A stretch of 64,000 bases of DNA from Candidatus Omnitrophota bacterium (GTDB lineage: Bacteria; Omnitrophota; Gorgyraeia; Gygaellales; Profunditerraquicolaceae). Both the position numbers and the translations under genes were made by a program. Every line of letters begins with the position of its first letter. Positions within the stretch are counted from its first letter, which is position 1. The notes under the pieces were generated by a model, which saw nothing but the letters and a program-made list of their open reading frames with translations, was not told the DNA's origin and did not search any database. The stretch is taken from the NCBI GenBank assembly GCA_028716245.1, contig JAQUQW010000002.1:293346-357345 (forward strand), given 5' to 3'. Below are positions 3,376 to 58,825 of this stretch, one piece after another.

Positions 3376-3460
3376 AAAACTGTACGATTACTGTATACCA
3401 AATAGGTTGCATTAAGATAACTTCTTAATTATAATAGCCTTGTGAGCGTCGGGGGTTTAT
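3376..3460 (+). promoter_or_regulatory. promoter cassette copy 2 (-35 TTGCAT 3407-3412, -10 TATAAT 3430-3435)
   Basis: Paralogous to 2498..2580; followed at 3464-3478 by CCCTGCCTCTCCGAT, identical to the 3' end of tRNA-Ser(GGA) at 1404-1418. Confidence 0.6.
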
Positions 3461-3530
3461 TTCCCTGCCTCTCCGATTTTTTCTTGCGGAGTAGCAAGAT
3501 CAATTCTATTTAAATCACAGAAAGGATAGC

Positions 3531-4397
3531 TTGATGTTTAGGAAGCTAGCCCAAACAGGCATTATAAACGCGTGCAGTAAAAATAACCTTATAATCATAG
3601 TGTTGACTATAATTGCGATCATAGCTATGTTAAAAGTAGTCGTTCTTTTAACTGAAGAGAGAGGTTTATATCAACCTGATAAGGAAGTGGATATCAGTCC
3701 TCAATCTATTGGCCTTGTTTATGATGATGTTTATTTTGAAACAGAAGACGGGGAGACATTAAATGGTTGGTTTGTGCCTGCAAAAGATACAAAAATTACT
3801 ATTTTATTCTGTGCTGGCCGCGGAGGCAATCTGTCAGATAGGCTGCAAAGGATAAAGTTTTTTAACGAGATGGGCTTAAATATATTTACCTTTGATTATA
3901 GAGGATTTGGAAACAGCTCAGGAAAACCAGGCGAACAGGGTTTGTACAGGGATGTACGGGCAGCTTACAATTACCTAGTGAAAAGGAAAGATATTAATAA
4001 GGACAAAATTGTGGTTTATGGTAAATCATTAGGCGGGCCGGTTGCCGCGGATTTATGCCTGCATTTTAAGCTCTCGGCTTTGATCCTGGAAGCCGCTTTT
4101 CCATCACTTAAGGAATATGTAGGAGACATAGGCGGGATCTTGCCGACAGAATGGTTAGTTTCTGAAAAGTTCGATTCATTATCAAGGGTTAAGAATATAC
4201 ATATACCAAAGCTTTTTGTCCAGGGGATGGATGATGAAATTATAAGTTTTTCCGAAGGGCGCCGTATTTTTAATAAAGCCGCGCCTCCTAAAGAGTTTGT
4301 TCCTTTTGACGGCCATCATGATGACAATATGTTCACTGTCTCTGATGCCTACAAAGAGAAGATTATGAAGTTTCTGCTTAACAACAATATATTATAA
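3531..4397 (+). CDS. alpha/beta hydrolase (BEM46/S9-like), N-terminal membrane anchor
   Basis: GKSLGG nucleophile elbow (GxSxG), downstream Asp and His; 288 aa. Confidence 0.7.
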   Translation: MMFRKLAQTGIINACSKNNLIIIVLTIIAIIAMLKVVVLLTEERGLYQPDKEVDISPQSIGLVYDDVYFETEDGETLNGWFVPAKDTKITILFCAGRGGNLSDRLQRIKFFNEMGLNIFTFDYRGFGNSSGKPGEQGLYRDVRAAYNYLVKRKDINKDKIVVYGKSLGGPVAADLCLHFKLSALILEAAFPSLKEYVGDIGGILPTEWLVSEKFDSLSRVKNIHIPKLFVQGMDDEIISFSEGRRIFNKAAPPKEFVPFDGHHDDNMFTVSDAYKEKIMKFLLNNNIL

Positions 4398-4901: not shown

Positions 4902-7082
4902 CTATTGTTTTTTTGGTAATTCTATAATAAAAGAAGTCCCTTCCATATAGTTTGAAGTAAACCGGATTTTGCCTCTGTGGTTTTCTTCTATAATCCTCTT
5001 TACCACATATACTCCTATGCCTGAGCCGGATTTATAGGAAGTTTTGGTGGTAAAGAAAGGGGCAAATATCTTAGGTTTATCCTCTGCTTTTATGCCTATG
5101 CCGTTATCCGATATTTTTATTATTTGTTGGCCTTGCGTATGCGTTAAGCTTAATCCTATGGCCGGGACAAAGGATCCCGGCTCTTTTTTTGCGCCAATCT
5201 GCATTTTTCTTTCTTCGATGGCTTCATAGGCGTTGTCCAGCAGATTATAAATGACTTCGGTTAATTGCGACTTGATTCCGTATATTGCCTCTTCATTATC
5301 AATTTTTACAGTAAGGGGGAGGGAGGCGGTTTCGTGTTTAAACATTAATAGGTCAGAGGAAAGCTTTACGGCTTCTTTCAGGGAAAAGACGGTGAAGAGA
5401 TTTTCTTTATTTTCTACTTTGGCAAAGTCAAGGATCCCTTTGATAATAGCGTCAGTCCTTTTTACGTTATCCAGGATGGTAGCGGCTATCTCATTCAGGT
5501 ATTTAAATGTTTTATTTAGTTCCGGGTTGTGGTTAACCAGCTTATCGTTTTTTTCTATAAAGTTTCTTACCTCAATTTTTAATTCCCCGCCTGTCAAGGA
5601 AAACAGGTTAAGCCTGTTTTTGATCTGGTGGGCAATGCCGTCAGCCATGCCTCCGATTGAAGCAAGCTTTTCGGCGGCGAACATCCTTTGCTGCGAGTCT
5701 TTTGATTCTTCGAAGAATATGCAATTTTCAATTGCCAGCGCTACCTGCCGCGAAAGAATTTTAAAAACATTAATATCTTCATTAGAATAAGGATGGGTGT
5801 TTGTTTTCTCACCCAGAAATACAAAACCAAAAAGCTCTTCCCCGATTAACACGGGGATAACTATTTTGGTTTTAGAAAGTATATTTGAAGAATTTTTTAT
5901 TTGTTCGGGAGCATTTTCAAAGAAAAAGTTTCCGCGGTTTTCCTTTAGATAACGGATAAAAGGATCATCTATATCAAAACTTTTAACGCATTCTCCGATA
6001 TTAGATTCTCCGCGTATTGATTTTAGTTGATACAAATTGTTTTTCTTATCTTTAATAAAGATCGCGGAGAAATTAATCCGGATTGTATTTTTTAAGATAT
6101 AAACAATAAGTCTTGATAATTTTTTTAGGTCATGTTCGGTAACCATGCCAACCGCGGCCCGCAAAAGTATCCTTTGATAACGGCGTTGTTGAGCTAAAAT
6201 AGCCGATTCGGCTTTCATCTGCAGGAAACGGTAGACCAGCGGTCCTATTGTTGCGAAAATAACCGCAAGGGAAGTGGCGAGTAATCCCGAACCCGTGCGC
6301 TTAAGCACGATAAACGGTATGCCTAGAACAATAGTGTAGACCGCAAGAAATATGCCTGCGCGGGTAAAGACAATTCTTATGTCCATAAGGTGATAACGGA
6401 TAATTGCATAACTCATCAAAAAAGAAAAAATAAGTACTGGAATAAAGCCAAAGGGGTATATCTCTAATCCATAGCAAGGCAGCCAATCTGTTGCCCCCAG
6501 ATAAGCAACAAGTGTCGCAATGAGGACTATTTTATATTGCCTCTTTTTCAGTCCAGCCGCTTTTTTATAAAGATTAATATAGTTTATTAAAGTTGCAATA
6601 AGGGGAATAATCCAATAAATTATAAATATATTTCCACCAATACCATTTTTAAAATAGCGTCCCCAGAAATAATGGTGAACTCCCGATAAAATATAATTGT
6701 ATTTTAAATTAGTTAAATAAAATATCAAACTGATTATAGCGCCAAGGATTACATATTTTCTTTGTTTATTGAGTAATTCTTTGTCATGGCATAAACTAAG
6801 CCAATAATTAGCGATTGAAATAAAACACACGCCCAGGAATTCAAATTTATTATACAACTCTATTACTATCCAATCATATTTTGACATATACGTAAGGCCA
6901 TTGCCAAACAGCCAAAAATTTGCCAGAATTATCCATATTGAAAAAGATATATTTAAGCGTACCTTGTTTTTTAAGCCGACAAATAACCCCAAGAAAATGG
7001 ATATTACACCACTGAGAAAAACAGGTATCGCATAAGGATTCCAAAAGTAATTCTGCGGGTTAAACATCTCTTTTAGCATCAA
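4902..7082 (-). CDS. sensor histidine kinase: N-terminal multi-TM sensor, GAF domain, HisKA, HATPase_c
   Basis: About 8 N-terminal TM helices; H-box GIAHQIKNRL; HATPase motifs DNGIGI and GSGIGV. Confidence 0.8.
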   Translation of the reverse strand: MMLKEMFNPQNYFWNPYAIPVFLSGVISIFLGLFVGLKNKVRLNISFSIWIILANFWLFGNGLTYMSKYDWIVIELYNKFEFLGVCFISIANYWLSLCHDKELLNKQRKYVILGAIISLIFYLTNLKYNYILSGVHHYFWGRYFKNGIGGNIFIIYWIIPLIATLINYINLYKKAAGLKKRQYKIVLIATLVAYLGATDWLPCYGLEIYPFGFIPVLIFSFLMSYAIIRYHLMDIRIVFTRAGIFLAVYTIVLGIPFIVLKRTGSGLLATSLAVIFATIGPLVYRFLQMKAESAILAQQRRYQRILLRAAVGMVTEHDLKKLSRLIVYILKNTIRINFSAIFIKDKKNNLYQLKSIRGESNIGECVKSFDIDDPFIRYLKENRGNFFFENAPEQIKNSSNILSKTKIVIPVLIGEELFGFVFLGEKTNTHPYSNEDINVFKILSRQVALAIENCIFFEESKDSQQRMFAAEKLASIGGMADGIAHQIKNRLNLFSLTGGELKIEVRNFIEKNDKLVNHNPELNKTFKYLNEIAATILDNVKRTDAIIKGILDFAKVENKENLFTVFSLKEAVKLSSDLLMFKHETASLPLTVKIDNEEAIYGIKSQLTEVIYNLLDNAYEAIEERKMQIGAKKEPGSFVPAIGLSLTHTQGQQIIKISDNGIGIKAEDKPKIFAPFFTTKTSYKSGSGIGVYVVKRIIEENHRGKIRFTSNYMEGTSFIIELPKKQ

Positions 7083-10357: not shown

Positions 10358-11480
10358 AATATTCTCGGCAATAATTTTTACCACGCTTATAATCGCCGGA
10401 TTTTTTCTTGCGCGAGGATGCATCTCTAATTTATCAGGATCCTTGGCTAAAGATAAAGTTGCCCCGAGAGAATTAAAAGAAGCATTATATTGGCAGGAGG
10501 CGGGCGAAGGCAAGGTGCAGTGTTTTTTATGCCCCAGGCGATGTTTGATACCTTTGGGCCAGCGGGGTTTTTGCCGCGCAAGAAAGAATATCAAAGGCAA
10601 GCTCTATGCCTTAACTTACGGCTAGCCCGTGGCCATACATATCGACCCGGTAGAGAAGAAGCCGCTTTTTCATGTTTACCCGGGGACAAAATCTTTTTCC
10701 ATTGCTACCGCCGGATGCAATTTAAGATGCAAGTTTTGCCAGAACTGGGAAATTTCCCAACTGGATCCTGAAACAGTAAAAGTGGCTTATATTTCGCCGC
10801 AGGATATCGTAAGGGAGGCCAAGCAGAGCGGCGCAAAGACGATAGCTTTTACTTACACTGAGCCGGCGATCTTCTATGAATATATGCTTGATATCGCCAA
10901 ATTGGCCAAAAAGGAGGGCATTGCCTGCGTTATGCATTCGGCAGGTTTTGTTAATGAGGAGCCCCTGCGCCAGCTGTCTAAATACTTAACCGCCGCAAAT
11001 ATCGACCTGAAAGGTTTTAGCGATAAATATTATTCTTCTTTTTGCGAAGGCAACTTAACCAGCGTCCTTAATTCTCTTAAGGTATTAAAAGAGGAAAAAG
11101 TCTGGGTGGAGGTAACCAATCTCATTATCCCTTCCGCCAATGATTCCGACGAAGATATCGGCAATCTTTGTTTGTGGGTAAAAGATAACCTTGGCCCGGA
11201 TACCCCGGTGCATTTTTCCAGGTTCTTCCCGATGTATAAGCTGGCGGATTTATCTCCTACGCCGCTTAAAACATTAATCCGCGCAAAAGAGATCGCCTAT
11301 AAAACAGGGCTGCGCTATGTGTACATCGGCAATGTCCCGGAAAATTTAGGAGAGGATACAATTTGTCCCGTATGCGCCAAATTTCTGATTAAGCGCGCAG
11401 GCTATACCATATTGGAGAATAATGTTATTAAAGGTAAGTGCAAATTCTGCGGCGCTAAGATCTCCGGCGTATGGGATTAG
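10341..11480 (+). pseudogene. AmmeMemoRadiSam-system radical SAM enzyme (PFL-activase-like), interrupted by an in-frame TAG at 10623-10625
   Basis: ORFs 10341..10625 and 10629..11480 share a frame. Read-through gives ..CFLCPRRC..GFCRARKN..LYALTYG*PVAIHIDPVEKKPLFHVYPG..CNLRCKFCQNWE, the hallmark of this family. Confidence 0.75.
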
Positions 11481-13588
11481 TTGCGCAGGTTTTTCAGGGC
11501 AAAGATCGCGTTGAGCAAGATTAAAGTTAAAAGGCTATACGGTGTCCCCAGAAATGGTATAAGCAGTATCCCGCTTACCATTGTCCCCAGGAATGCCCCG
11601 ATTAAATCCGCTGAATAGATAGTCATAGCTAAATTTTTGTTGTCGAATTTATTTTTAAGCAGGTTTTGCGCCAGGAGCGGATAGGAGCTGCCGGTAAGGA
11701 ACCCGCAGATCAAGGAATAGAAATAGAAGATAAACTCGGCGTAACCAACCTTTGTGATTATTTTCAGGTTCCAAAATAAAATAAAGATCGAGATCATCCA
11801 GAAGAGGTAAAGCCCGGAGAGCAGGTTGGCCCGATAGGTTTTGATGGTATTTAAGAGAAATGTCCCGATGCTAAGCCCGGCCATAAACAAGGCGATTAAT
11901 AAGCCTAACTTCCAAAACAAAGCCCCGCAATAAAGTTGGAATAACACAAAAATTATCGAACTAAAGCTGATCGAAGTAAAGCCGATCATCCCGGTATTTA
12001 AGAGGCAGGAAATTTTTTTAAAAAGATAGCCGAAAATTATTATCAGTGCTGCCAAAAGCAAAAGAGCCGCGGCTATGCTTGAGCGCATTTTATTGAAATC
12101 TATTTTGAGGTTAGGATAAAACTTAATTTGTTCCAGGATAAGATAATTAAGGAAACCTGACGGGTTAAGGTCGGTATTTGCCGGGACATTTCTATCCAGC
12201 ATACTTTCCGTATAACTGCGCATCGCAGGGTCAAGATAGTCCTTAAAATGATAGATTGTGAAAAACTTAGTCCGGGGGTTTACCTTGGTAAAATTGTTCA
12301 GCAGATCGTCAGCATTAATTTTTAGCTTATCGGAGGCGATTACAATCATGGAATCAGAAGGGATAATGAAGGTATTCGTAAATACCCTGTCTATGGCATT
12401 TATTATGCTGGAGTCAAACCTGGCAAATTGCGGGCTTAATATTTCTCTTTTAGAAGGGATGGTAAATGCAAATATGCCTTTTGGTTTCAAGCGCCCGGGA
12501 ATAAGTTTAAAAAATTCTTCGGTAAAATAGCGGTTTAAGGCCAGGTTAACCGGCGCGGGCATATTCATTAAAATAGCGTCATATTGCCTGTTTGTGTTCT
12601 TAAGGTATAGGCGGGGATCATCAGTAATAAAATTAACTTTACTTTTTAGCCCGGCAGGCAATTTATTTTTGGCAAGTTTTGAGATCAGGGGGTTTATCTG
12701 CAGGCAATCCAGCGAGTTTAATTTATACTTAGCTATTTCTTCAACCTGTCCGGAGATGGCCGCGCCGACAAAGAGGACATCTTTATTAACGAGGGGGCTG
12801 GTTGCGGACAAACTCATATGGATAAATTCTTCATTGGCGGATCTATCTTCGCTTGTAGCTAAAGAAGATCCTCCGGAAAACAAGGTGGTTGCTCCTGCTT
12901 TGCAAGTGGCAATAATCGGGCCATAGCTAGAGCCAAGATTTACCAGGATATCAGCGTTAGCGAATTCTTTCTTAAGAATAGAGTTAAAACTTACTGCAGA
13001 GATTATAGTTATGATAATGATGAGGCAAGCCGGAAGGATTTTTTTATAGTGATTTTTAATGGCCGGCAACAAAATCAACGGTGATAACGCGAAAATCAGC
13101 GGATTTGTATAATCGATAAAGCAAAAAGTAAAAGCCATGCCCCCCAAGAAAAAACCTATTGCCTCAAAGGCAAAGAACTTAGCGTAAATATCTTTTTGCG
13201 GCTGATTTTCTCTAATGTATTCTTGCACAAAATGCCTGAAGGCAAGGCCGATGGTAAAAGCAGTTGGCCCGATCAAAATAATACTTAAAAATAATACCAG
13301 GCCCAGGCCCGCGGCTTCGTAATATTTTAATCCTGCCAGTGATTTTGCCAGATGGATCAGGCATACGGAGAAAGAAAAAGATAGAGAGGCTAAAATACAG
13401 AGTAGTGTTGTGCGCAGTCTTTTAGAAGTTTTGAGGATACTGCCTAAGGAGCAAAAAATAATCCAGAAACCCACAGCGACCACAAAGGCCAGCTCATTTT
13501 TGGCGATGGAGAAGCTGAATTCACGCAAGATGACCAGCTGAAATATCGCGGCAATTATCCCTAATGCTATAAAGATAATCATGGACAA
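11477..13588 (-). CDS. spermidine-synthase-like (polyamine aminopropyltransferase fold) fused to a large polytopic membrane domain
   Basis: 703 aa with more than 10 TM helices on both sides of a Rossmann-type SpeE-like segment (VLFVGAAISG..DAILMNMP..). Confidence 0.55.
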   Translation of the reverse strand: MSMIIFIALGIIAAIFQLVILREFSFSIAKNELAFVVAVGFWIIFCSLGSILKTSKRLRTTLLCILASLSFSFSVCLIHLAKSLAGLKYYEAAGLGLVLFLSIILIGPTAFTIGLAFRHFVQEYIRENQPQKDIYAKFFAFEAIGFFLGGMAFTFCFIDYTNPLIFALSPLILLPAIKNHYKKILPACLIIIITIISAVSFNSILKKEFANADILVNLGSSYGPIIATCKAGATTLFSGGSSLATSEDRSANEEFIHMSLSATSPLVNKDVLFVGAAISGQVEEIAKYKLNSLDCLQINPLISKLAKNKLPAGLKSKVNFITDDPRLYLKNTNRQYDAILMNMPAPVNLALNRYFTEEFFKLIPGRLKPKGIFAFTIPSKREILSPQFARFDSSIINAIDRVFTNTFIIPSDSMIVIASDKLKINADDLLNNFTKVNPRTKFFTIYHFKDYLDPAMRSYTESMLDRNVPANTDLNPSGFLNYLILEQIKFYPNLKIDFNKMRSSIAAALLLLAALIIIFGYLFKKISCLLNTGMIGFTSISFSSIIFVLFQLYCGALFWKLGLLIALFMAGLSIGTFLLNTIKTYRANLLSGLYLFWMISIFILFWNLKIITKVGYAEFIFYFYSLICGFLTGSSYPLLAQNLLKNKFDNKNLAMTIYSADLIGAFLGTMVSGILLIPFLGTPYSLLTLILLNAIFALKNLRN

Positions 13589-37881: not shown

Positions 37882-38153
37882 TTCCATCTGCCTTCCTCAA
37901 AAGCTGGAAATTTTATGAAGTAGTATATATTATTAGCGGGTGGCAAGCCTTGGACTCGAGTGAGCATCTCAAAAATTCGAGCGGGCAAGGCTGCCCGCAA
38001 TAAATGTCCTGGCAGAGCGAGAATTTTTGCCGAAGCGAAGATTTTCCACGCTGGGGAAAATCGAGCGGTGCTGCGAGAGACAAGGCTTGACAGGACCCGC
38101 GTAAATTATTAAATTTCCCTATAAAATTTACAGCTTTATCCCTCCATTTTCTT

Positions 38154-52923: not shown

Positions 52924-54324
52924 ATGCCTATCTTTATATATAATTCCCTCACCAGAAAAAAAGAAGAGTTTGTTCCGATAAAGGCTCCGCAGGTAAAAAT
53001 GTATACTTGCGGAGTTACGGTTTATGACGCCTGCCATATTGGCCATGCCCGCAGTTTATTTATTTTCGATTTGATCCGCAGGTATTTAAAATACCGCGGT
53101 TTTGACGTGAGTTTTACGCGCAATATCACCGATATCGACGATAAGATAATTAACCGGGCTAATGAGCTTAAAGTTGACTGGCAGGAGTTGGTTAGTAAAT
53201 ATATCGCCAGTTACAATCAGGATCTAGAAAGCCTGGGGATAGAAAAAGCGGATTTTGAGCCGCGGGCAACCGAAAATATTACCGATATGATTGAATATAT
53301 TAAAAAGCTGGTGGATAAAGGCCTGGCTTATGAATCCGCCGGCGATGTTTATTTTGATGTGCGTAAATTTGCCGGATACGGGAAATTATCCGGCCAAAGC
53401 ATCGACCAGATGGAGACCGGGGTGAGGATCGGCCCGTCGGAGTTAAAGCATGACCCGTTGGATTTTGCCCTTTGGAAACGCTCTAAGGAAAATGAGCCTT
53501 GCTGGCCCAGCATTTTTGGGCCGGGCAGGCCGGGCTGGCATATCGAGTGTTCGGTGATGTCGCAGAAGTTTTTAAAAACCGAAACTTTGGATATCCACGC
53601 CGGAGGCAGGGATTTGATTTTTCCGCACCATGAGAATGAATTGGCGCAGAGTGAATCCTATAGCGGTAAGCCATTTGCTAAATATTGGATACACCATGGA
53701 CTGCTTACGATCAACACGCAAAAGATGTCTAAGTCGCTGGGGAATTTTATCACGATTAAGGATTTTATCGCCAAATACCATAATCCCGAGCTGTTGAAGT
53801 TTTTCTTTTTGTCCGCCCACTATGCCCACCCAATCGATTACAGCGACGCAAAAATCGAGGAGGCCAGGCAAGCATTGCAGAGGATTAGTATTTTTATGGA
53901 TAAGGCCAAGGCAGTCAAGCCGGGTTTGGCGCTAACCCTGTTAAAGAGACATTCTAAAGAGGTGGCTAAGTTAAAAAATAAATTTACCGCTTCTTTAGAT
54001 GATGATTTTAACACGCCGGAAGCCTTGGCTTGTGTTTTTGAGCTGGTGAACCTGGCGAATAAAAATATCGGGAAGGCGGATCTTGTTTTTAGCGCTCAAG
54101 TTGTTTTAAAAGAGATGCTTGAGATCCTCGGCATTACGCTTAAGGCGGTAAGAATCGACACCCAGATCAGCGAAGATGAAATTAAGTCTAAGATTCAGAG
54201 TAGGTCGGATGCTAAAAAATCCAAGGACTACGCGCTGGCCGATAAAATCAGAAAAGAGCTGGAAGAAAAAGGGGTAATTCTCGAGGATACCAAGAACGGC
54301 GCAACTTGGAGAAGGAAGTTGTAG
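52924..54324 (+). CDS. cysS: cysteine--tRNA ligase
   Basis: HIGHA and KMSKS class I motifs. Confidence 0.9.
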   Translation: MPIFIYNSLTRKKEEFVPIKAPQVKMYTCGVTVYDACHIGHARSLFIFDLIRRYLKYRGFDVSFTRNITDIDDKIINRANELKVDWQELVSKYIASYNQDLESLGIEKADFEPRATENITDMIEYIKKLVDKGLAYESAGDVYFDVRKFAGYGKLSGQSIDQMETGVRIGPSELKHDPLDFALWKRSKENEPCWPSIFGPGRPGWHIECSVMSQKFLKTETLDIHAGGRDLIFPHHENELAQSESYSGKPFAKYWIHHGLLTINTQKMSKSLGNFITIKDFIAKYHNPELLKFFFLSAHYAHPIDYSDAKIEEARQALQRISIFMDKAKAVKPGLALTLLKRHSKEVAKLKNKFTASLDDDFNTPEALACVFELVNLANKNIGKADLVFSAQVVLKEMLEILGITLKAVRIDTQISEDEIKSKIQSRSDAKKSKDYALADKIRKELEEKGVILEDTKNGATWRRKL

Positions 54325-54365
54325 TGAATAGTTTGATTTGAAGTAGGGGATTGGAGATTCTCATT

Positions 54366-54400
54366 AAAAAGCCCATAACTTGCGTTACGGGCTTTTTAAT
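54366..54400 (+). terminator. rho-independent terminator after cysS
   Basis: GCCCATAAC ttgc GTTACGGGC followed by TTTTT. Confidence 0.65.
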
Positions 54401-54429
54401 TTGTTAGATGCTATGTTAAACTGCCAAGC

Positions 54430-55400
54430 TTTTCAAGGAATGGTATGATACCTTCATTAAGTGAGTTCAACCATTTCGAAAGGAGGAAAGCATGGCCTAC
54501 AATTCACAGGACTATGACATATTTATCGGAATCGATGTTGACCAAAAAAGCTTCTCGTTTACCGTCAAGGACCACGAACAGATGAACCGTTCACACAGAA
54601 TACCCGCAGATCCAGAGAACCTTTACCGCCATATAGAAAATACCTATAATGGCAAAAGAGTCATCTGCGCCTATGAAACCGGAGGGAGTGGTTATTATCT
54701 TCATGATTATTTAACCTCCGCTACGCGCCAACGGTTAGATTTGCTGCTTGCGGATTTAGAGTATGCACGTAACCAGCAATTAAAGGTCATTAACGAATTA
54801 AGGGCAATAGCGTTAAATAATCCCTGCCTTACGGCTAATGTGCATTGCTTGCGTTCTATCCCTGGTATAGGTTTATTACGGCAATAACCATATTGGCAAA
54901 TATCGGCGATACAGCTAAGCAACCCCAGAGAGCTGGGGGCGTTTATCGGGCTTGTGCCTCGTGAACATTCCACCGGAGACAAAATATCCAAAGGCTCTAT
55001 CACCCACATGGGCGATGTTTTCCTGCGCTCTCTGCTGATTGAGGCCAGTTGGGTAATTATCCGTAAGGATACACGTATGCGGCAATTCTATGATCGCATT
55101 CGCTCCAGGCATCATCCGCATATTGCCGCTCGCAAGGCCATTGTCGCGGTAGCGCGTAAATTAACCTTGATTATTTATAGGGTCTTGAAAGAACAGCGTG
55201 ACTATATAGCTTAATGATAAGAAATAGTGTTAGAGATAGGACCTTTAAGTAACGCTTGCCTTGGGGGACGCCTCGTGGTCAAAATCAGAGTCAATGTTTT
55301 TAGACTCGTTGTTAGATAGAGACCCCTGGGGCCTTAAACGCAAAATCAAATAGTGTGAACCCATGTGGGTTGCCACGTATAACAGAGAGTTAAAGGGTTC
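54430..55400 (+). mobile_element. IS110-family insertion sequence remnant (approximate bounds)
   Basis: Pseudogene above plus a downstream hairpin GTGAACCCATGTGGGTTGCCAC. No terminal inverted repeats, which is usual for IS110. Confidence 0.5.
54492..55214 (+). pseudogene. IS110-family transposase, degraded (at least 2 frameshifts)
   Basis: N-terminal DEDD domain (IFIGIDVDQKSFSF) in ORF 54492..54887. An ..ILANIGDTAKQ.. segment sits in a third frame. The C-terminal Transposase_20 region (ELGAFIGLVPREHSTGDK..) is in ORF 54954..55214. Confidence 0.75.
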
Positions 55401-55522
55401 TAGATTTAACACGAGGAGCTAGAATAAGAAAAGCTTGACACTTTACATAACAGATTTTGGCCTTTTCTGCGTCAGTTGCGGTAGGAAGAAAATAATAATG
55501 ACGCAAGAAAGGAGAGAAAGGA

Positions 55523-56548
55523 ATGAAGAATTCGATAGGCAAAGAATATATCAATTTCTTGAATGGAATCAAATCGCGCATTGTTACAGCGCGGATTCAG
55601 GCGATTAGGTCGGTCAATAAAGAGCTTATAAAGTTATATTGGGATATCGGCAGAACTATCGTCGAGAGGCAGAAAAAATATAAGTGGGGAGATGCGGTAG
55701 TTGAAAGGTTTGCCTTTGATTTAGCCGCAGAATTTAATGGTAGGGCGGGTTTTTCCGTGCAAAATTTATGGCGGATGAGGCTTTTATATCTTGAGTACAA
55801 AGATAGCCTGAAACTCGCACAGCTTGTGCGAGAAATTCCCTGGGGACAAAATATTGTCATAATGCAGATGGTTAAAGATATCAAAGAGCGAGAGTATTAT
55901 ATTCGCGCTACAGCGGAAATGGGATGGAGCCGCAATGTGCTTCTCAACCAGATAAAAGCCGGAGTTTATACCTTCTACTTGAAACAGAAAACCCATAATT
56001 TTCCTAAAGTCCTTCCCGGCTATCTTGCTGAACAGGCAGATGAATCCATAAAAAGCGTTTATAACCTTGATTTTCTTGATATCACAAAATCATTGGTTGA
56101 ACGGGAGTTAGAGCGCCGCCTTGTTGAAAGAATTAAGCGCTTTATGCTTGAACTGGGTAAAGGATTTTCATTTCTTGGTGATCAATACCGCCTAATATTG
56201 GGGAATAATGAATATTTTGTTGATCTTTTATTTTTTAACCGTCTATTAAAATGCCTTGTGGCAGTTGAGTTTAAAACCGGTAAGTTTGAGCCCGAATATG
56301 CCGGGAAGATAGATTTTTATCTTCACCTATTGGATGAACAAGTAAAACTGAAAGATGAAAATCCGTCAATAGGCATTATTCTATGCGCGGCTAAAGACAA
56401 TATTGTGGTTGAGTATGCTTTGCGTAGTACCAAAAAGCCCGTGGGGGTTGCCGAATACTGTCTTACGAATAAACTGCCTAAATATTTGGCCAGAAAACTT
56501 CCTGATGCCAGCGCGTTGAAATTATCGATACAAGAGGAATTGAAGTAG
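55523..56548 (+). CDS. YhcG/DUF1016 family PDDEXK nuclease
   Basis: N-terminal YhcG-type helical domain and C-terminal restriction-endonuclease-like core (..VDLLFFNRLLKCLVAVEFKTGKFEPEYAGKIDFY..). Confidence 0.75.
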   Translation: MKNSIGKEYINFLNGIKSRIVTARIQAIRSVNKELIKLYWDIGRTIVERQKKYKWGDAVVERFAFDLAAEFNGRAGFSVQNLWRMRLLYLEYKDSLKLAQLVREIPWGQNIVIMQMVKDIKEREYYIRATAEMGWSRNVLLNQIKAGVYTFYLKQKTHNFPKVLPGYLAEQADESIKSVYNLDFLDITKSLVERELERRLVERIKRFMLELGKGFSFLGDQYRLILGNNEYFVDLLFFNRLLKCLVAVEFKTGKFEPEYAGKIDFYLHLLDEQVKLKDENPSIGIILCAAKDNIVVEYALRSTKKPVGVAEYCLTNKLPKYLARKLPDASALKLSIQEELK

Positions 56549-56673
56549 CTATGCTCTCTAGTGCCATGGACTCTACATCTTTTTCTATTGAGCTAATTGG
56601 CCTTAGGCGGTATAATCAAAAATCAGGGGCGTTTCTGGAGTTTTTATTGGAAGTAAAAAAAGGAGGACTTTAG

Positions 56674-57018
56674 ATGATGCACTTCTTGGTAAGATGGGGA
56701 ATTAACGCGCTGTCGATTTTTATTGTCGCGCACATTGTCAGGGGCATCGAGGTTTCAAGTACCGCCACTGTCCTGGTGATTGCTTTGGTCTTGGGGATCA
56801 TTAACGCTTTCTTGAGGCCTTTGATTATTCTGGTTACGCTGCCGATCAATATTATTACCTTAGGGGTATTTACCCTTTTTATCAACGGAGCTCTTTTCCT
56901 TTTGGTGTCTAAGATTGTCAAAGGTTTCGTGATTACGGGTTTCTGGACAGCTTTCTGGGGGTATATCCTTTTTAGCATCATTAGTTTCTTGTTAAGCCTG
57001 TTAGTTTTTTCTGTTTAA
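56674..57018 (+). CDS. 4-TM membrane protein, Phage_holin_4_2 / YvlD (DUF360) family
   Basis: ..IVAHIVRGIEVSS..LGIINAFLRPLIILVTLPINIITLGVFTLFINGALFLL.. matches the family pattern. Confidence 0.65.
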   Translation: MMHFLVRWGINALSIFIVAHIVRGIEVSSTATVLVIALVLGIINAFLRPLIILVTLPINIITLGVFTLFINGALFLLVSKIVKGFVITGFWTAFWGYILFSIISFLLSLLVFSV

Positions 57019-57023
57019 TTAAG

Positions 57024-57053
57024 TGATAAATAGAAACGGTCCCATTATTTCTA
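57024..57053 (+). repeat. motif AAATAGAAACGGTCCCATTATTT copy 1 (left flank of patatin gene)
   Basis: 26 nt identical to the copy at 62869..62893; inverted partner at 58103..58118. Confidence 0.7.
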
Positions 57054-57064
57054 GAGGGAGGATT

Positions 57065-58099
57065 ATGCTTTATCATTTTAAAAATCTGGTTTTTGAAGGC
57101 GGGGGCGTTAAGGGGATGGCGTATTCCGGGGCGATGGAGATATTGGCTGAGAAAGGCATCTTGCAGAAAATCGAGCGGGTGGGAGGGACATCGGCCGGGG
57201 CGATTAATTCCGTTTTAGTCGGTTTGAATTATTCGGTTGATGATATGAAAGAAGTCCTTTGGAAGCTAAACTTTAATGATTTAATGGATAACCAGTGGGG
57301 GATAATCGAAGGCCTGCCGAGGCTGGCGGGAAAATACGGCTGGTATAAAGGGGATTTTTTCAGGAAGTGGATTGGAGAAATAATCCGCAGGAAAACCGGA
57401 AGCAGTGAGGCGAGTTTTGCCGATATCTCCGCGCAGAAAGAGCAAAAGGGGTTTAAGGATTTGTATGTTATCGGGACGAATCTTTCCACGCATTTTAGCG
57501 AGGTTTTTTCAAATGAAAAGACACCAGATATGCCGGTTGCCGATGCTGTGAGGATCTCTATGTCGATCCCGTTGTTTTTCGCGAGCAAACGCGCAGGCAG
57601 GCGCAGGGATGTTTATGTTGACGGGGGAGTTTTGGCCAATTACCCGGTTAAACTTTTTGACCGTGAAAAATACGTTCAAGAGAACAAAAGAAGCACGGAT
57701 TATTATGAGGCGCATAATAAGAAGCTGAAAGAGCAGGGGATTAAGATCAGTAAGTACGTTTACAACCAGGAAACACTGGGATTCAGGCTGGATTCTCGGG
57801 AGGAAATTGGTGTCTTCCGCGACCAAAAAGAACCGGCGCACCATAAAATCAAGAGTTTTGTCGCTTACGCCAAAGGGTTAGTCCAGACGATAATCGACCA
57901 TCAGCTTAATCTGCATCTGCACAGTGATGATTGGCAGAGGACGATTTATATCGATGCTTCGGCGGCCAAGACAACGGAGTTTTACTTGTCAGATGAGAAA
58001 AAGGCGGCCTTGGTTGAAGCCGGCCGCAAAGGCGCCAGAGAATATTTTGAGTGGTTTGATAAGGGGAATTCCATTAATAAGGTAGTTGCTACTCTTTAA
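57065..58099 (+). CDS. patatin-like phospholipase
   Basis: Oxyanion hole FEGGGVKG, nucleophile elbow GTSAG, Asp in DGG(V) near residue 200. Confidence 0.85.
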   Translation: MLYHFKNLVFEGGGVKGMAYSGAMEILAEKGILQKIERVGGTSAGAINSVLVGLNYSVDDMKEVLWKLNFNDLMDNQWGIIEGLPRLAGKYGWYKGDFFRKWIGEIIRRKTGSSEASFADISAQKEQKGFKDLYVIGTNLSTHFSEVFSNEKTPDMPVADAVRISMSIPLFFASKRAGRRRDVYVDGGVLANYPVKLFDREKYVQENKRSTDYYEAHNKKLKEQGIKISKYVYNQETLGFRLDSREEIGVFRDQKEPAHHKIKSFVAYAKGLVQTIIDHQLNLHLHSDDWQRTIYIDASAAKTTEFYLSDEKKAALVEAGRKGAREYFEWFDKGNSINKVVATL

Positions 58100-58102
58100 A
58101 AC

Positions 58103-58118
58103 TAGGGACGGTTCTATT
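58103..58118 (-). repeat. motif copy 2, inverted (TAGGGACGGTTCTATT), right flank of patatin gene
   Basis: Reverse complement AATAGAACCGTCCCTA. Confidence 0.65.
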
Positions 58119-58133
58119 AAGGAGTTTTATGAA

Positions 58134-58157
58134 AAATAGAACTGTCCCCTTTATTTT
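58134..58157 (+). repeat. motif copy 3 (AAATAGAACTGTCCCCTTTATTTT), inside the 18-aa mini-ORF upstream of tmk
   Basis: Read directly. Confidence 0.6.
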
Positions 58158-58216: not shown

Positions 58217-58825
58217 ATGAGAGGAAAATTTATTACATTTGAAGGGTCTGAAGGTTGCGGGAAGAGCACGCAGTCGAAGATGCTTTTTGGGTATCTTAAG
58301 GCCAAGGGGTTAAAGGCAATTTATCTGCGTGAGCCTGGCGGCGTCAAGGTAAGCGAGATGATTAGAGAGATATTGCTTAATCCTAAGAACAAGATATCGC
58401 CGGCGGCTGAGACTTTACTTTATATGGCTGCCCGCGCCCAGGTGGTTGAAGAGATTATTAAACCCGCGCTGATTGCCGGAAGAATAGTTGTCTGCGACCG
58501 GTTCATGGATTCGACGATTGCTTATCAAGGTTATGGTTTAGGCATCGATATCAAACTGATTAAAGTTATTGGTAATTTTGCCACCCAAGGCATCGCGCCG
58601 GATCTGACCATTTTTTTAGACCTGCCGATTAAAAGCGGGCTGAAACATCGGGATAACTGCAAGGACCGCATCGAGCAGCGCTCGGTTAGTTATCATGAAA
58701 AGGTAAGAAGAGGTTATCTTGCGCTGGCCAAGAATGAACCGCGAAGGATTAAAATCGTCAAAGTCCAGGAAGATAAATTTAAGACGCAAGAGAAGATCAG
58801 GGAGATCGTCAATGCGCTTGGCTGA
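58217..58825 (+). CDS. tmk: thymidylate kinase
   Basis: P-loop FEGSEGCGKST, DRF motif, LID region. Confidence 0.9.
   Translation: MRGKFITFEGSEGCGKSTQSKMLFGYLKAKGLKAIYLREPGGVKVSEMIREILLNPKNKISPAAETLLYMAARAQVVEEIIKPALIAGRIVVCDRFMDSTIAYQGYGLGIDIKLIKVIGNFATQGIAPDLTIFLDLPIKSGLKHRDNCKDRIEQRSVSYHEKVRRGYLALAKNEPRRIKIVKVQEDKFKTQEKIREIVNALG

Follow-up and report, generated by a model that had tools for sequence, protein, structure and literature searches.

The accessory block between cysS and tmk in a 64,000-nucleotide (nt) stretch of a Candidatus Omnitrophota genome (contig JAQUQW010000002.1; this whole stretch is hereafter called the window, and its positions serve as coordinates) is best read as a compact mosaic accessory island at a lineage-specific cysS|tmk hotspot, whose parts are independent modules and not one system. 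We give this reading a probability of roughly three in four. The block carries a decayed insertion sequence (IS), a YhcG nuclease, a membrane protein with four transmembrane helices (4-TM) and a patatin-like lipase, all on the + strand between cysS (52924–54324) and tmk (58217–58825). A first-pass annotation of the DNA letters had listed these four elements, and all were found at the coordinates it gave. It had also proposed that the nuclease, a "holin" and the lipase form a single abortive-infection or toxin cassette. This tempting lead proved false and is removed here: the three genes are not related to one another but each a passenger of the same defence hotspot, and "holin" is a misnomer for a membrane protein of the cell. 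For Omnitrophota, a phylum that is little studied and largely uncultured, the cysS|tmk site provides a first defence-island hotspot worked through in detail. Its main features are as follows.

54363–54400, + strand: intrinsic-terminator hairpin of cysS, with 17-nt arms (94% complementary), a 4-nt loop and a following T run
54410–55451, + strand: decayed IS110/IS1111-type IS of 1042 nt, with an internal deletion and frameshifts, occupying the exact segment that interrupts homology to the sister-lineage contig L089 (see below)
55523–56548, + strand: intact YhcG/DUF1016 nuclease of the PD-(D/E)xK type (DUF1016_N, 8.7e-42; YhcG_C, 4.5e-59)
56674–57018, + strand: PF04020 four-TM membrane protein of 114 amino acids (aa), matching the family over its full length (2.8e-30)
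57065–58099, + strand: intact patatin-like Ser-Asp phospholipase of 344 aa (PF01734, 1.9e-32; 113.5 bits against a cut-off of 27.7)

The position of the block was examined by a CysS scan of species-representative genomes, which gave about 30 Omnitrophota loci, the nearest being PCWB01000003 with 78–82% nt identity. The gene order radA-yacL-ispD-ispF-cysE-cysS-tmk-holB-ricT-metG(-tatD) was kept in approximately 28 of them. In these species genomes cysS is followed directly by tmk across a gap of 0–570 nt, and none of the gaps contained a YhcG, PF04020 or patatin gene. This indicates that the block is lineage-specific, and it bears out the earlier view that a conserved run of core genes had been interrupted by an insertion. 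The left border, previously set at 54430, was relocated to 54403/54410, directly 3' of the cysS terminator hairpin. This hairpin gave weak Thr_leader-type matches on both strands, which are typical of a terminator, and it is the last sequence common to the window and a sister lineage before the island begins, their homology ending at 54409. The content of guanine and cytosine was 0.38–0.45 in the block versus 0.43–0.48 in its flanks, so that the block is not conspicuously foreign, and scans for promoters and terminators in the island were no richer than those of shuffled sequences.

The same site was found in the sister lineage, represented by contigs Ga0129287_10001279 (L089, of which L088 is a shorter form) and Ga0129287_10008880 (L081) of JGI sample 3300009538. 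The first 1079 nt of L088/L089 contain the 3' part of cysS with its terminator and match window positions 53331–54409 at 89.7% nt identity, and a YhcG segment farther along L089 matches 55452–56542 at 92%. L081 carries a patatin gene that is 91.5% identical in nt to the window copy and lies at the tmk edge of the island, and the contig continues into tmk-holB-ricT at 89.9% identity. The equal identity of about 90% to the window suggests that L089 and L081 flank one island in one genome, with a size of at least 14 kb. It was read over L089 1–14507 and L081 1–4854, the middle stretch being unassembled. YhcG and patatin match their window copies about as closely as the core genes do; the common ancestor of the two lineages therefore probably had both genes in its island. 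The sister island contains the following features.

L089: CopG-like gene (PF12441, below the Pfam cut-off)
L089: RecQ-type helicase with DEAD, Helicase_C, RQC and HRDC domains
L089: YhcG (homologue P0241, 91% aa identity to the window; PDC-S02)
Sister island: RadC (Pfam)
Sister island: Gp49/helix-turn-helix toxin-antitoxin pair (Pfam)
L089: type II restriction-modification (R-M) system (MTase_II, 7.5e-97; DpnII-type REase_II, 2.2e-70)
Sister island: Septu (PtuA, 3.2e-112; PtuB, 4e-45)
Sister island: PD-Lambda-2 (HigB; PD-Lambda-2_B, 1.4e-145; PD-Lambda-2_C, 1.7e-17)
L081 2–556: RadA-like gene fragment directly upstream of the sister patatin (weak KaiC-type ATPase match)
L081: patatin (homologue P0001, 96% aa identity to the window), adjoining the tmk side
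L081: Bro-N protein (PDC-S13, 8.7e-114)

The cysS|tmk site of the sister lineage hence holds the known systems R-M, Septu and PD-Lambda-2 together with the catalogued candidates PDC-S02 and PDC-S13, which is the content of a defence island. The part of the first-pass annotation that assigned the block to the defence-island type is upheld by this content, and the part that joined nuclease, "holin" and lipase in one cassette is not. Chromosomal integration hotspots that lie between conserved core genes and carry defence islands have been described, for example, in E. coli and Pseudomonas. The site examined here resembles them in that the flanks, cysS and tmk, are fixed and the content between them is variable. 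It differs in that the cysS|tmk site showed neither an integrase nor a satellite/prophage backbone, and in that the modules have in common a conserved 5' leader and a 3' hairpin. To our knowledge, island modules with a conserved 5' leader and 3' hairpin have not been described. The RadA/KaiC-like fragment of L081 is divergent and unrelated to the radA of the genome itself. Two short pieces within L089 5971–6094 match window YhcG positions 56006–56067 and 56478–56543 with 85% identity; they are what is left of another YhcG copy, which lies 1.5 kb downstream of the intact gene and has suffered an internal deletion, and they attest to turnover.

Comparison of the two islands located the joints between modules. 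Homology breaks at 54409, 55452, 56542, 57025 and 58091/58097, which are all gene edges. At 54409 the window has the IS where the sister has CopG-RecQ, the common YhcG segment runs from 55452 to 56542, the common patatin segment starts at 57025, and at 58091/58097 the sister lineage has an inserted Bro-N gene. The 4-TM gene is contained in its own module of approximately 380 nt (56657–57036), whose only DNA relatives are 4-TM genes in other contexts, such as contig L085. Because homology ends at the edges of each gene, each is taken to be a separate module. In the sister island YhcG and patatin stand at opposite ends, more than 10 kb apart, and no 4-TM gene adjoins the patatin. In a tblastn search over 117 loci, 100 carried a patatin relative, and none of these 100 was flanked by a relative of the 4-TM protein or of YhcG; both partners were also absent from six independent patatin contexts (including L082, L083, L084, L090–099 and L100–105). 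Similarly, no patatin or YhcG gene was observed beside the 4-TM gene in any of four contexts outside the window (L085, L086/087 and L117). A single system would be expected to show repeated co-localisation across unrelated genomes, which was not found. The first-pass annotation had named, as an outcome that would speak against its cassette, genes that are individually widespread and never co-localised elsewhere; given the patatin and 4-TM contexts, this is essentially what was obtained. A single-sequence patatin scan of metagenomes returned one locus only, too few for statistics on co-occurrence.

The YhcG protein matched both of its Pfam domains over their full lengths (PF17761, 142.9 bits; PF06250, 199.2 bits), and the D...ExK pattern (VDLLF...VEFK) is visible in its sequence. 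It is 92% identical in nt and 91% in aa to the copy at the same hotspot in the sister lineage. A search with PADLOC-type models, which had been recommended earlier, identified YhcG as a catalogued defence candidate, PDC-S02, matched at 5.3e-131 over residues 1–338. PDC-S02 is one of 145 phage-defence candidates selected by "guilt by embedding", that is, for lying within systems of the BREX, DISARM or type I R-M kind (Payne et al., bioRxiv 10.1101/2024.01.29.577857). DUF1016 genes have been reported to occur within type I/II R-M loci and to be enriched next to the targets of programmed inversions, and the same list of neighbours includes BREX genes (PMC9881135). The window protein agrees with PDC-S02 in its full-length model match, its two Pfam domains and its location at a defence hotspot. 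It differs in standing alone, as no R-M genes lie beside it in the window. No close relatives were detected in viral contigs, no solved structure of a relative was found, and the literature gave no functional study of DUF1016/YhcG. The gene would encode a stand-alone PD-(D/E)xK nuclease, most likely acting alone on nucleic acid.

The 4-TM protein belongs to PF04020, the family named "Mycobacterial 4 TMS phage holin", with which it shares a full-length match and, as in B. subtilis YvlD-type proteins, the character of a small four-helix membrane protein. It differs from a holin in its neighbours, which include no lysis genes, and in its extreme conservation within Omnitrophota: the best 120 of 449 matches, mostly from this phylum, are 81–94% identical. 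Elsewhere, its gene lies beside a symporter and a cupin, beside an OprB porin, or beside response regulators, a cupin and MatE. No lysis or phage genes adjoined it in five contexts including the window, no lysis cassette with an endolysin was found, and PADLOC models returned nothing for it; the domain match is what connects it to holins. The earlier description as "holin-like" and "membrane-perturbing" goes back to the Pfam family name only, and was abandoned in view of neighbours of the housekeeping and envelope type. The protein behaves as the product of a cellular gene, and the holin name is not to be read as a function. It would be no holin but a near-invariant Omnitrophota membrane protein that is present in the island by chance. 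On two unrelated Omnitrophota contigs (L085 8001–8709 and L117 4001–4936) a cupin gene lies directly 3' of the PF04020 gene, and this cupin may be its real functional partner.

The patatin reading frame opens at GTG 57023, and the start supported by homologues is ATG 57065, which is preceded by GGGAGGATT. An alignment of 31 patatin sequences showed the motifs GGGxKG, GxSxG and DGG to be invariant, with residues G12–G14, K16, G17, G41, S43, G45, D186, G187 and G188 conserved in every sequence. The score together with the oxyanion, nucleophile and DGG motifs places the protein among the PF01734 phospholipases. Its AlphaFold2 model (pLDDT 77.6) has a patatin fold, for which a Foldseek search gave VipD, ExoU, CapV, CapE and PlpD about equally (template-modelling score 0.44–0.53, 12–20% identity). 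The values for CapV/CapE (TMq 0.44–0.51, 12–18% identity) were no better than those for VipD, ExoU or PlpD, and structure prediction did not discriminate among patatin subfamilies. PADLOC gave weak matches (5.5e-10) to phospholipase effector models of the cyclic oligonucleotide-based antiphage signalling system (CBASS). With the NCBIfam model CBASS_lipase (NF041079) the protein reached 30 bits against a cut-off of 200, which leaves it outside the CapV/CBASS-lipase family, and with the anti-phage lipase DS2_1 it reached 28 bits against 400. It shares with CapV/CapE the patatin fold, the three motifs and a length of about 340 aa, and a close homologue adjoins a CBASS operon; it differs in the missing cyclase, in its score far below the CBASS_lipase cut-off and in the many family members found in housekeeping contexts. 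No Cyclase model for a CD-NTase matched any of the five open reading frames of the island, which is therefore not a CBASS, in agreement with the first reading.

Patatin relatives were seen in several genomic contexts. In the region L084 4220–8530, an 83% identical homologue follows a complete type I CBASS (cyclase, 2.1e-129; Cap15-type 2TM effector, 1.2e-81) at a distance of 224 nt and precedes a PLD/DrmC-like protein; it may be a second CBASS effector or just a neighbour. A 77% identical patatin (L083) lies beside a ParB-methyltransferase and a Lipase_3 gene, a 74% identical one (L082) among PspC, MsrA, DoxX and LptE, a 71% identical one beside a UbiE methyltransferase, and 62% identical ones among GarD, PaaK, HU and LarC in ten places. 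No close relatives occurred in viral contigs, where an alignment query retrieved only distant or contig-edge ones, and an exact-sequence look-up with either start codon gave no match. The patatin is regarded as generic and, by its motifs, catalytically intact. It would act as a stand-alone membrane-lipid hydrolase of a widespread Ser-Asp lipase family of about 340 aa, with or without a role in defence, and such a role is possible for its closest subclade.

Two alternatives keep some of the genes together as one system. The proposal that nuclease, 4-TM protein and patatin constitute a new abortive-infection or toxin cassette draws on their common strand, their close spacing, their location at a defence hotspot and the weak match of the patatin to CBASS effector models. 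It is hardly credible, since the arrangement is not conserved even in the sister lineage, the partners are missing from all patatin and 4-TM loci counted above, each gene has homology borders of its own, and YhcG and the 4-TM gene are 125 nt apart, with a promoter-like site in between. A smaller version, also very unlikely, confines the system to a two-gene membrane-attack module of this strain, in which the membrane protein would recruit or release the lipase. The stop codon at 57018 and the ATG at 57065 are indeed 46 nt apart on the same strand; the interval contains no predicted terminator, and a hairpin terminator stands downstream of the patatin gene. In the sister, however, the patatin (96% aa identity) has the radA-like fragment upstream, and the stretch shared with the window begins at 57025, directly past the 4-TM stop codon. 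Other 4-TM genes pair with a cupin, porin or symporter, and other patatins never have a PF04020 neighbour.

The remaining alternatives concern what the modules do. The patatin could be the real defence gene at the tmk edge: an anti-phage lipase, either stand-alone or an orphan effector, that represents a new subclade, works in the manner of CapV/CapE and responds to another trigger. Its intact catalytic motifs and the defence-rich character of its closest contexts, namely the window/sister island and L084 with its CBASS and PLD/DrmC-like gene, speak for this proposal, which we nevertheless hold to be unlikely: the scores fall far below both lipase cut-offs, the fold is no closer to CapV/CapE than to VipD, ExoU and PlpD, homologues of 62–74% identity reside in housekeeping neighbourhoods, and the CBASS of L084 already has its own effector. 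At the other extreme, no island gene would serve defence, and the site would be a recombination-permissive gap that gathers neutral cargo. This would suit a nuclease that is only a candidate, a patatin and a 4-TM protein with housekeeping-type relatives, and a base composition that is not foreign. The packing of the sister island with validated types of system and the embedding of DUF1016 genes in R-M loci and beside inversion targets make it decidedly improbable. The island is best filed as one of a known kind, a compact remnant of a defence island that contains a candidate nuclease of the PDC-S02 family, a patatin of generic type, a cellular membrane protein under a misleading name and an IS that is dead and was apparently RNA-guided.

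Several observations weigh against treating the block as an island of independent defence-related and other modules. The contexts inspected numbered one for YhcG and four for the 4-TM gene. The 4-TM and patatin genes, being so close on the same strand, may be co-transcribed in the window. L089 and L081 are two contigs of one metagenome whose connecting part was not assembled. A defence role of YhcG would follow from guilt by association, because PDC-S02 is one of 145 candidates. Lastly, the three closest patatin contexts (window/sister, L084 and L083) are all defence-like or mobile neighbourhoods, on account of which this patatin subclade may have a role in defence.

Modules of the sister island start with a common leader and end with a common hairpin. 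The leader motif is GTTAGATTTTKCC-N5-7-YRCGTCWATT, followed by a ribosome-binding site and a start codon; the whole leader of approximately 53 nt can be written GTTAGATTTTKCC..CGTCWATT..AGGAGGTGG..ATG or CTGTTAGATTTTGCCAC..CGTCTATT..AGGAGGTGGCAAAA-ATG. The window contains the leader and the hairpin in these pieces.

54403–54409, + strand: 5' part of the leader, GTTAGAT, split off by the IS; L089 reads GTTAGATTTTGCCAGCTTCTGCGTCTATTA at the same position, and the window goes straight into the IS
55448–55499, + strand: 3' remainder of the leader, AGATTTTGGCCTTTTCTGCGTCAGTTG..., which is degenerate, precedes YhcG and aligns with the L089 copy at 3411 upstream of the sister YhcG
57024–57050, + strand: half copy of the module-end hairpin, TGATAAATAGAAACGGTCCCATTATTT, upstream of the patatin gene; a direct repeat, 78% identical, with 58130–58156
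58105–58148, + strand: module-end hairpin/terminator before tmk, GGGACGGTTCTATT-N16-AATAGAACTGTCCC followed by a T run, with 14-nt arms that are 93% complementary

Leader copies were found in L089 at 1071–1123 (before CopG-RecQ), 3409–3461 (YhcG) and 6968–7020 (R-M), in L081 at 1639–1691 (Bro-N) and in L085 at 3493–3545 (one gene); no further copy was present elsewhere in the window or in the fetched loci, which total 1.33 Mb. In viral contigs, scanning gave 11 exact matches (L106–L116) versus none for the reversed pattern. There the leader heads a gene of about 56 aa, the last one before a tyrosine integrase or a tRNA, which is a position typical of prophage accessory genes. The 5' half of the leader, UUUUGCCACC, pairs with the ribosome-binding region, GGUGGCAAAA, with a minimum free energy of −17 to −24 kcal/mol for the phage copies and the R-M copy. 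In an alignment of 14 leader sequences, 80.5% of cells pair versus 47–67% in slid controls, and covariation was 0.318 versus 0.246 in shuffles, a value reached by 0 of 500 shuffles that lends modest support to the structure. Rfam holds no family for the leader. The covariance model R1 matched the degenerate window copy weakly (55452–55499; 19.1 bits, E 0.13), and searching with it gave no further strong copies.

Several known kinds of element were considered for the leader, and most were rejected. GTTAGAT fits the GTTRRRY core of an integron cassette, but no intI was found among the island reading frames and no ATCTAAC R'' partner upstream of any copy; moreover, the conserved stretch reaches past the 3' end of the core as far as the start codon, which is not so in attC. 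A dif/Xer-like site was dismissed since the motif has no dyad symmetry, and an attP/attB core since the phage contigs have their att region on the far side of the small gene, by the integrase or tRNA. Read as a sigma-70 promoter, the leader offers a plausible −10 element (TATTAT/TATAGT) in its loop and no acceptable −35. It may act as an RNA or as a promoter/operator. A far-reaching interpretation, which we advance as doubtful, would make it an undescribed cis-regulatory or portable expression element of temperate Omnitrophota phages, which marks mobile "moron" or defence cassettes, moves with them into chromosomal hotspots and provides the landing site that an IS1111-like element finds through its guide RNA; the island would then consist of standardised cassettes of leader, genes and hairpin, and the patatin subclade would be a stand-alone defence lipase. 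The leader and its link to phages are the only parts of this work that might be new, and they stand beside the finding on the island rather than in it.

The module-end hairpin (GGGACNGTTCTATT...AATAGAACNGTCCC plus a T run) was also found at L081 2555–2598 and, after RecQ, at L089 3364–3400. Exact copies of its 14-mer in the window numbered two, which are the two hairpin arms. The half copy upstream of the patatin has a counterpart upstream of the sister patatin in L081, and the hairpin was not found in viral contigs.

IS1111/IS110 elements carry a guide (seek/bridge) RNA, and IS1111-attC elements target conserved repeats. The window element retains the following parts.

54492–54887 and 54954–55214, + strand: IS110 transposase fragments covering positions 1–70 and 261–342 of the NCBIfam IS110 model (32 and 61 bits versus a cut-off of 140)
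55215–55451, + strand: 3' non-coding region of 237 nt, structured, a candidate guide (seek/bridge) RNA

The transposase fragments also match Pfam Transposase_20; an intact DEDD transposase was not found in the element, which is a remnant. Its ends are GCTATGTTAAACTGCCAAGC and GCTTGACACTTTACATAAC, with subterminal inverted repeats of 18 nt (54417–54434 and 55428–55445) that are 89% complementary, and AGAT on both sides may be a target duplication. The 3' non-coding region folds at −64.5 kcal/mol versus −52.1 kcal/mol in shuffles (z = −2.8). It contains TTGTTAGAT at 55309–55317, the same 9 nt as those abutting the insertion point (54401–54409), and the 8-nt ATAACAGA at 55379–55386, identical to the right-end junction of the IS. 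These two matches suggest that the GTTAGAT leader was the target of the IS. From the analogy to the guide RNAs of IS1111/IS110 elements, we infer that this region was a guide RNA, which apparently directed the element, now dead, into the leader before YhcG. No Rfam family matched the region, and no intact copy of the IS was found for comparison. The element resembles IS1111/IS110 in its DEDD transposase fragments, its subterminal inverted repeats, its structured 3' non-coding region with the target 9 nt and its insertion into a conserved repeated motif; it differs in being dead and in that both its RNA and the guide function are predicted from sequence only. Two testable leads result, namely the leader common to phage accessory genes and island cassettes, and the IS with a putative guide RNA matching that leader.

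Minor observations were made at the cysS|tmk site of other genomes. The usual downstream synteny was not present in L023 and L024. In a close relative (L003) the contig ends 157 nt past cysS, and its segment 11457–11535 resembles the unrelated window positions 37973–38051 (79% over 80 nt), perhaps as a dispersed repeat on account of which the assembly broke off at the hotspot. In the nearest species representative (L001) the cysS-tmk gap spans 568 nt (11399–11966) and contains an apparent small Cys-rich reading frame with a hydrophobic N-terminus, read by eye from the DNA; if it is real, the gap is variable even without an island.

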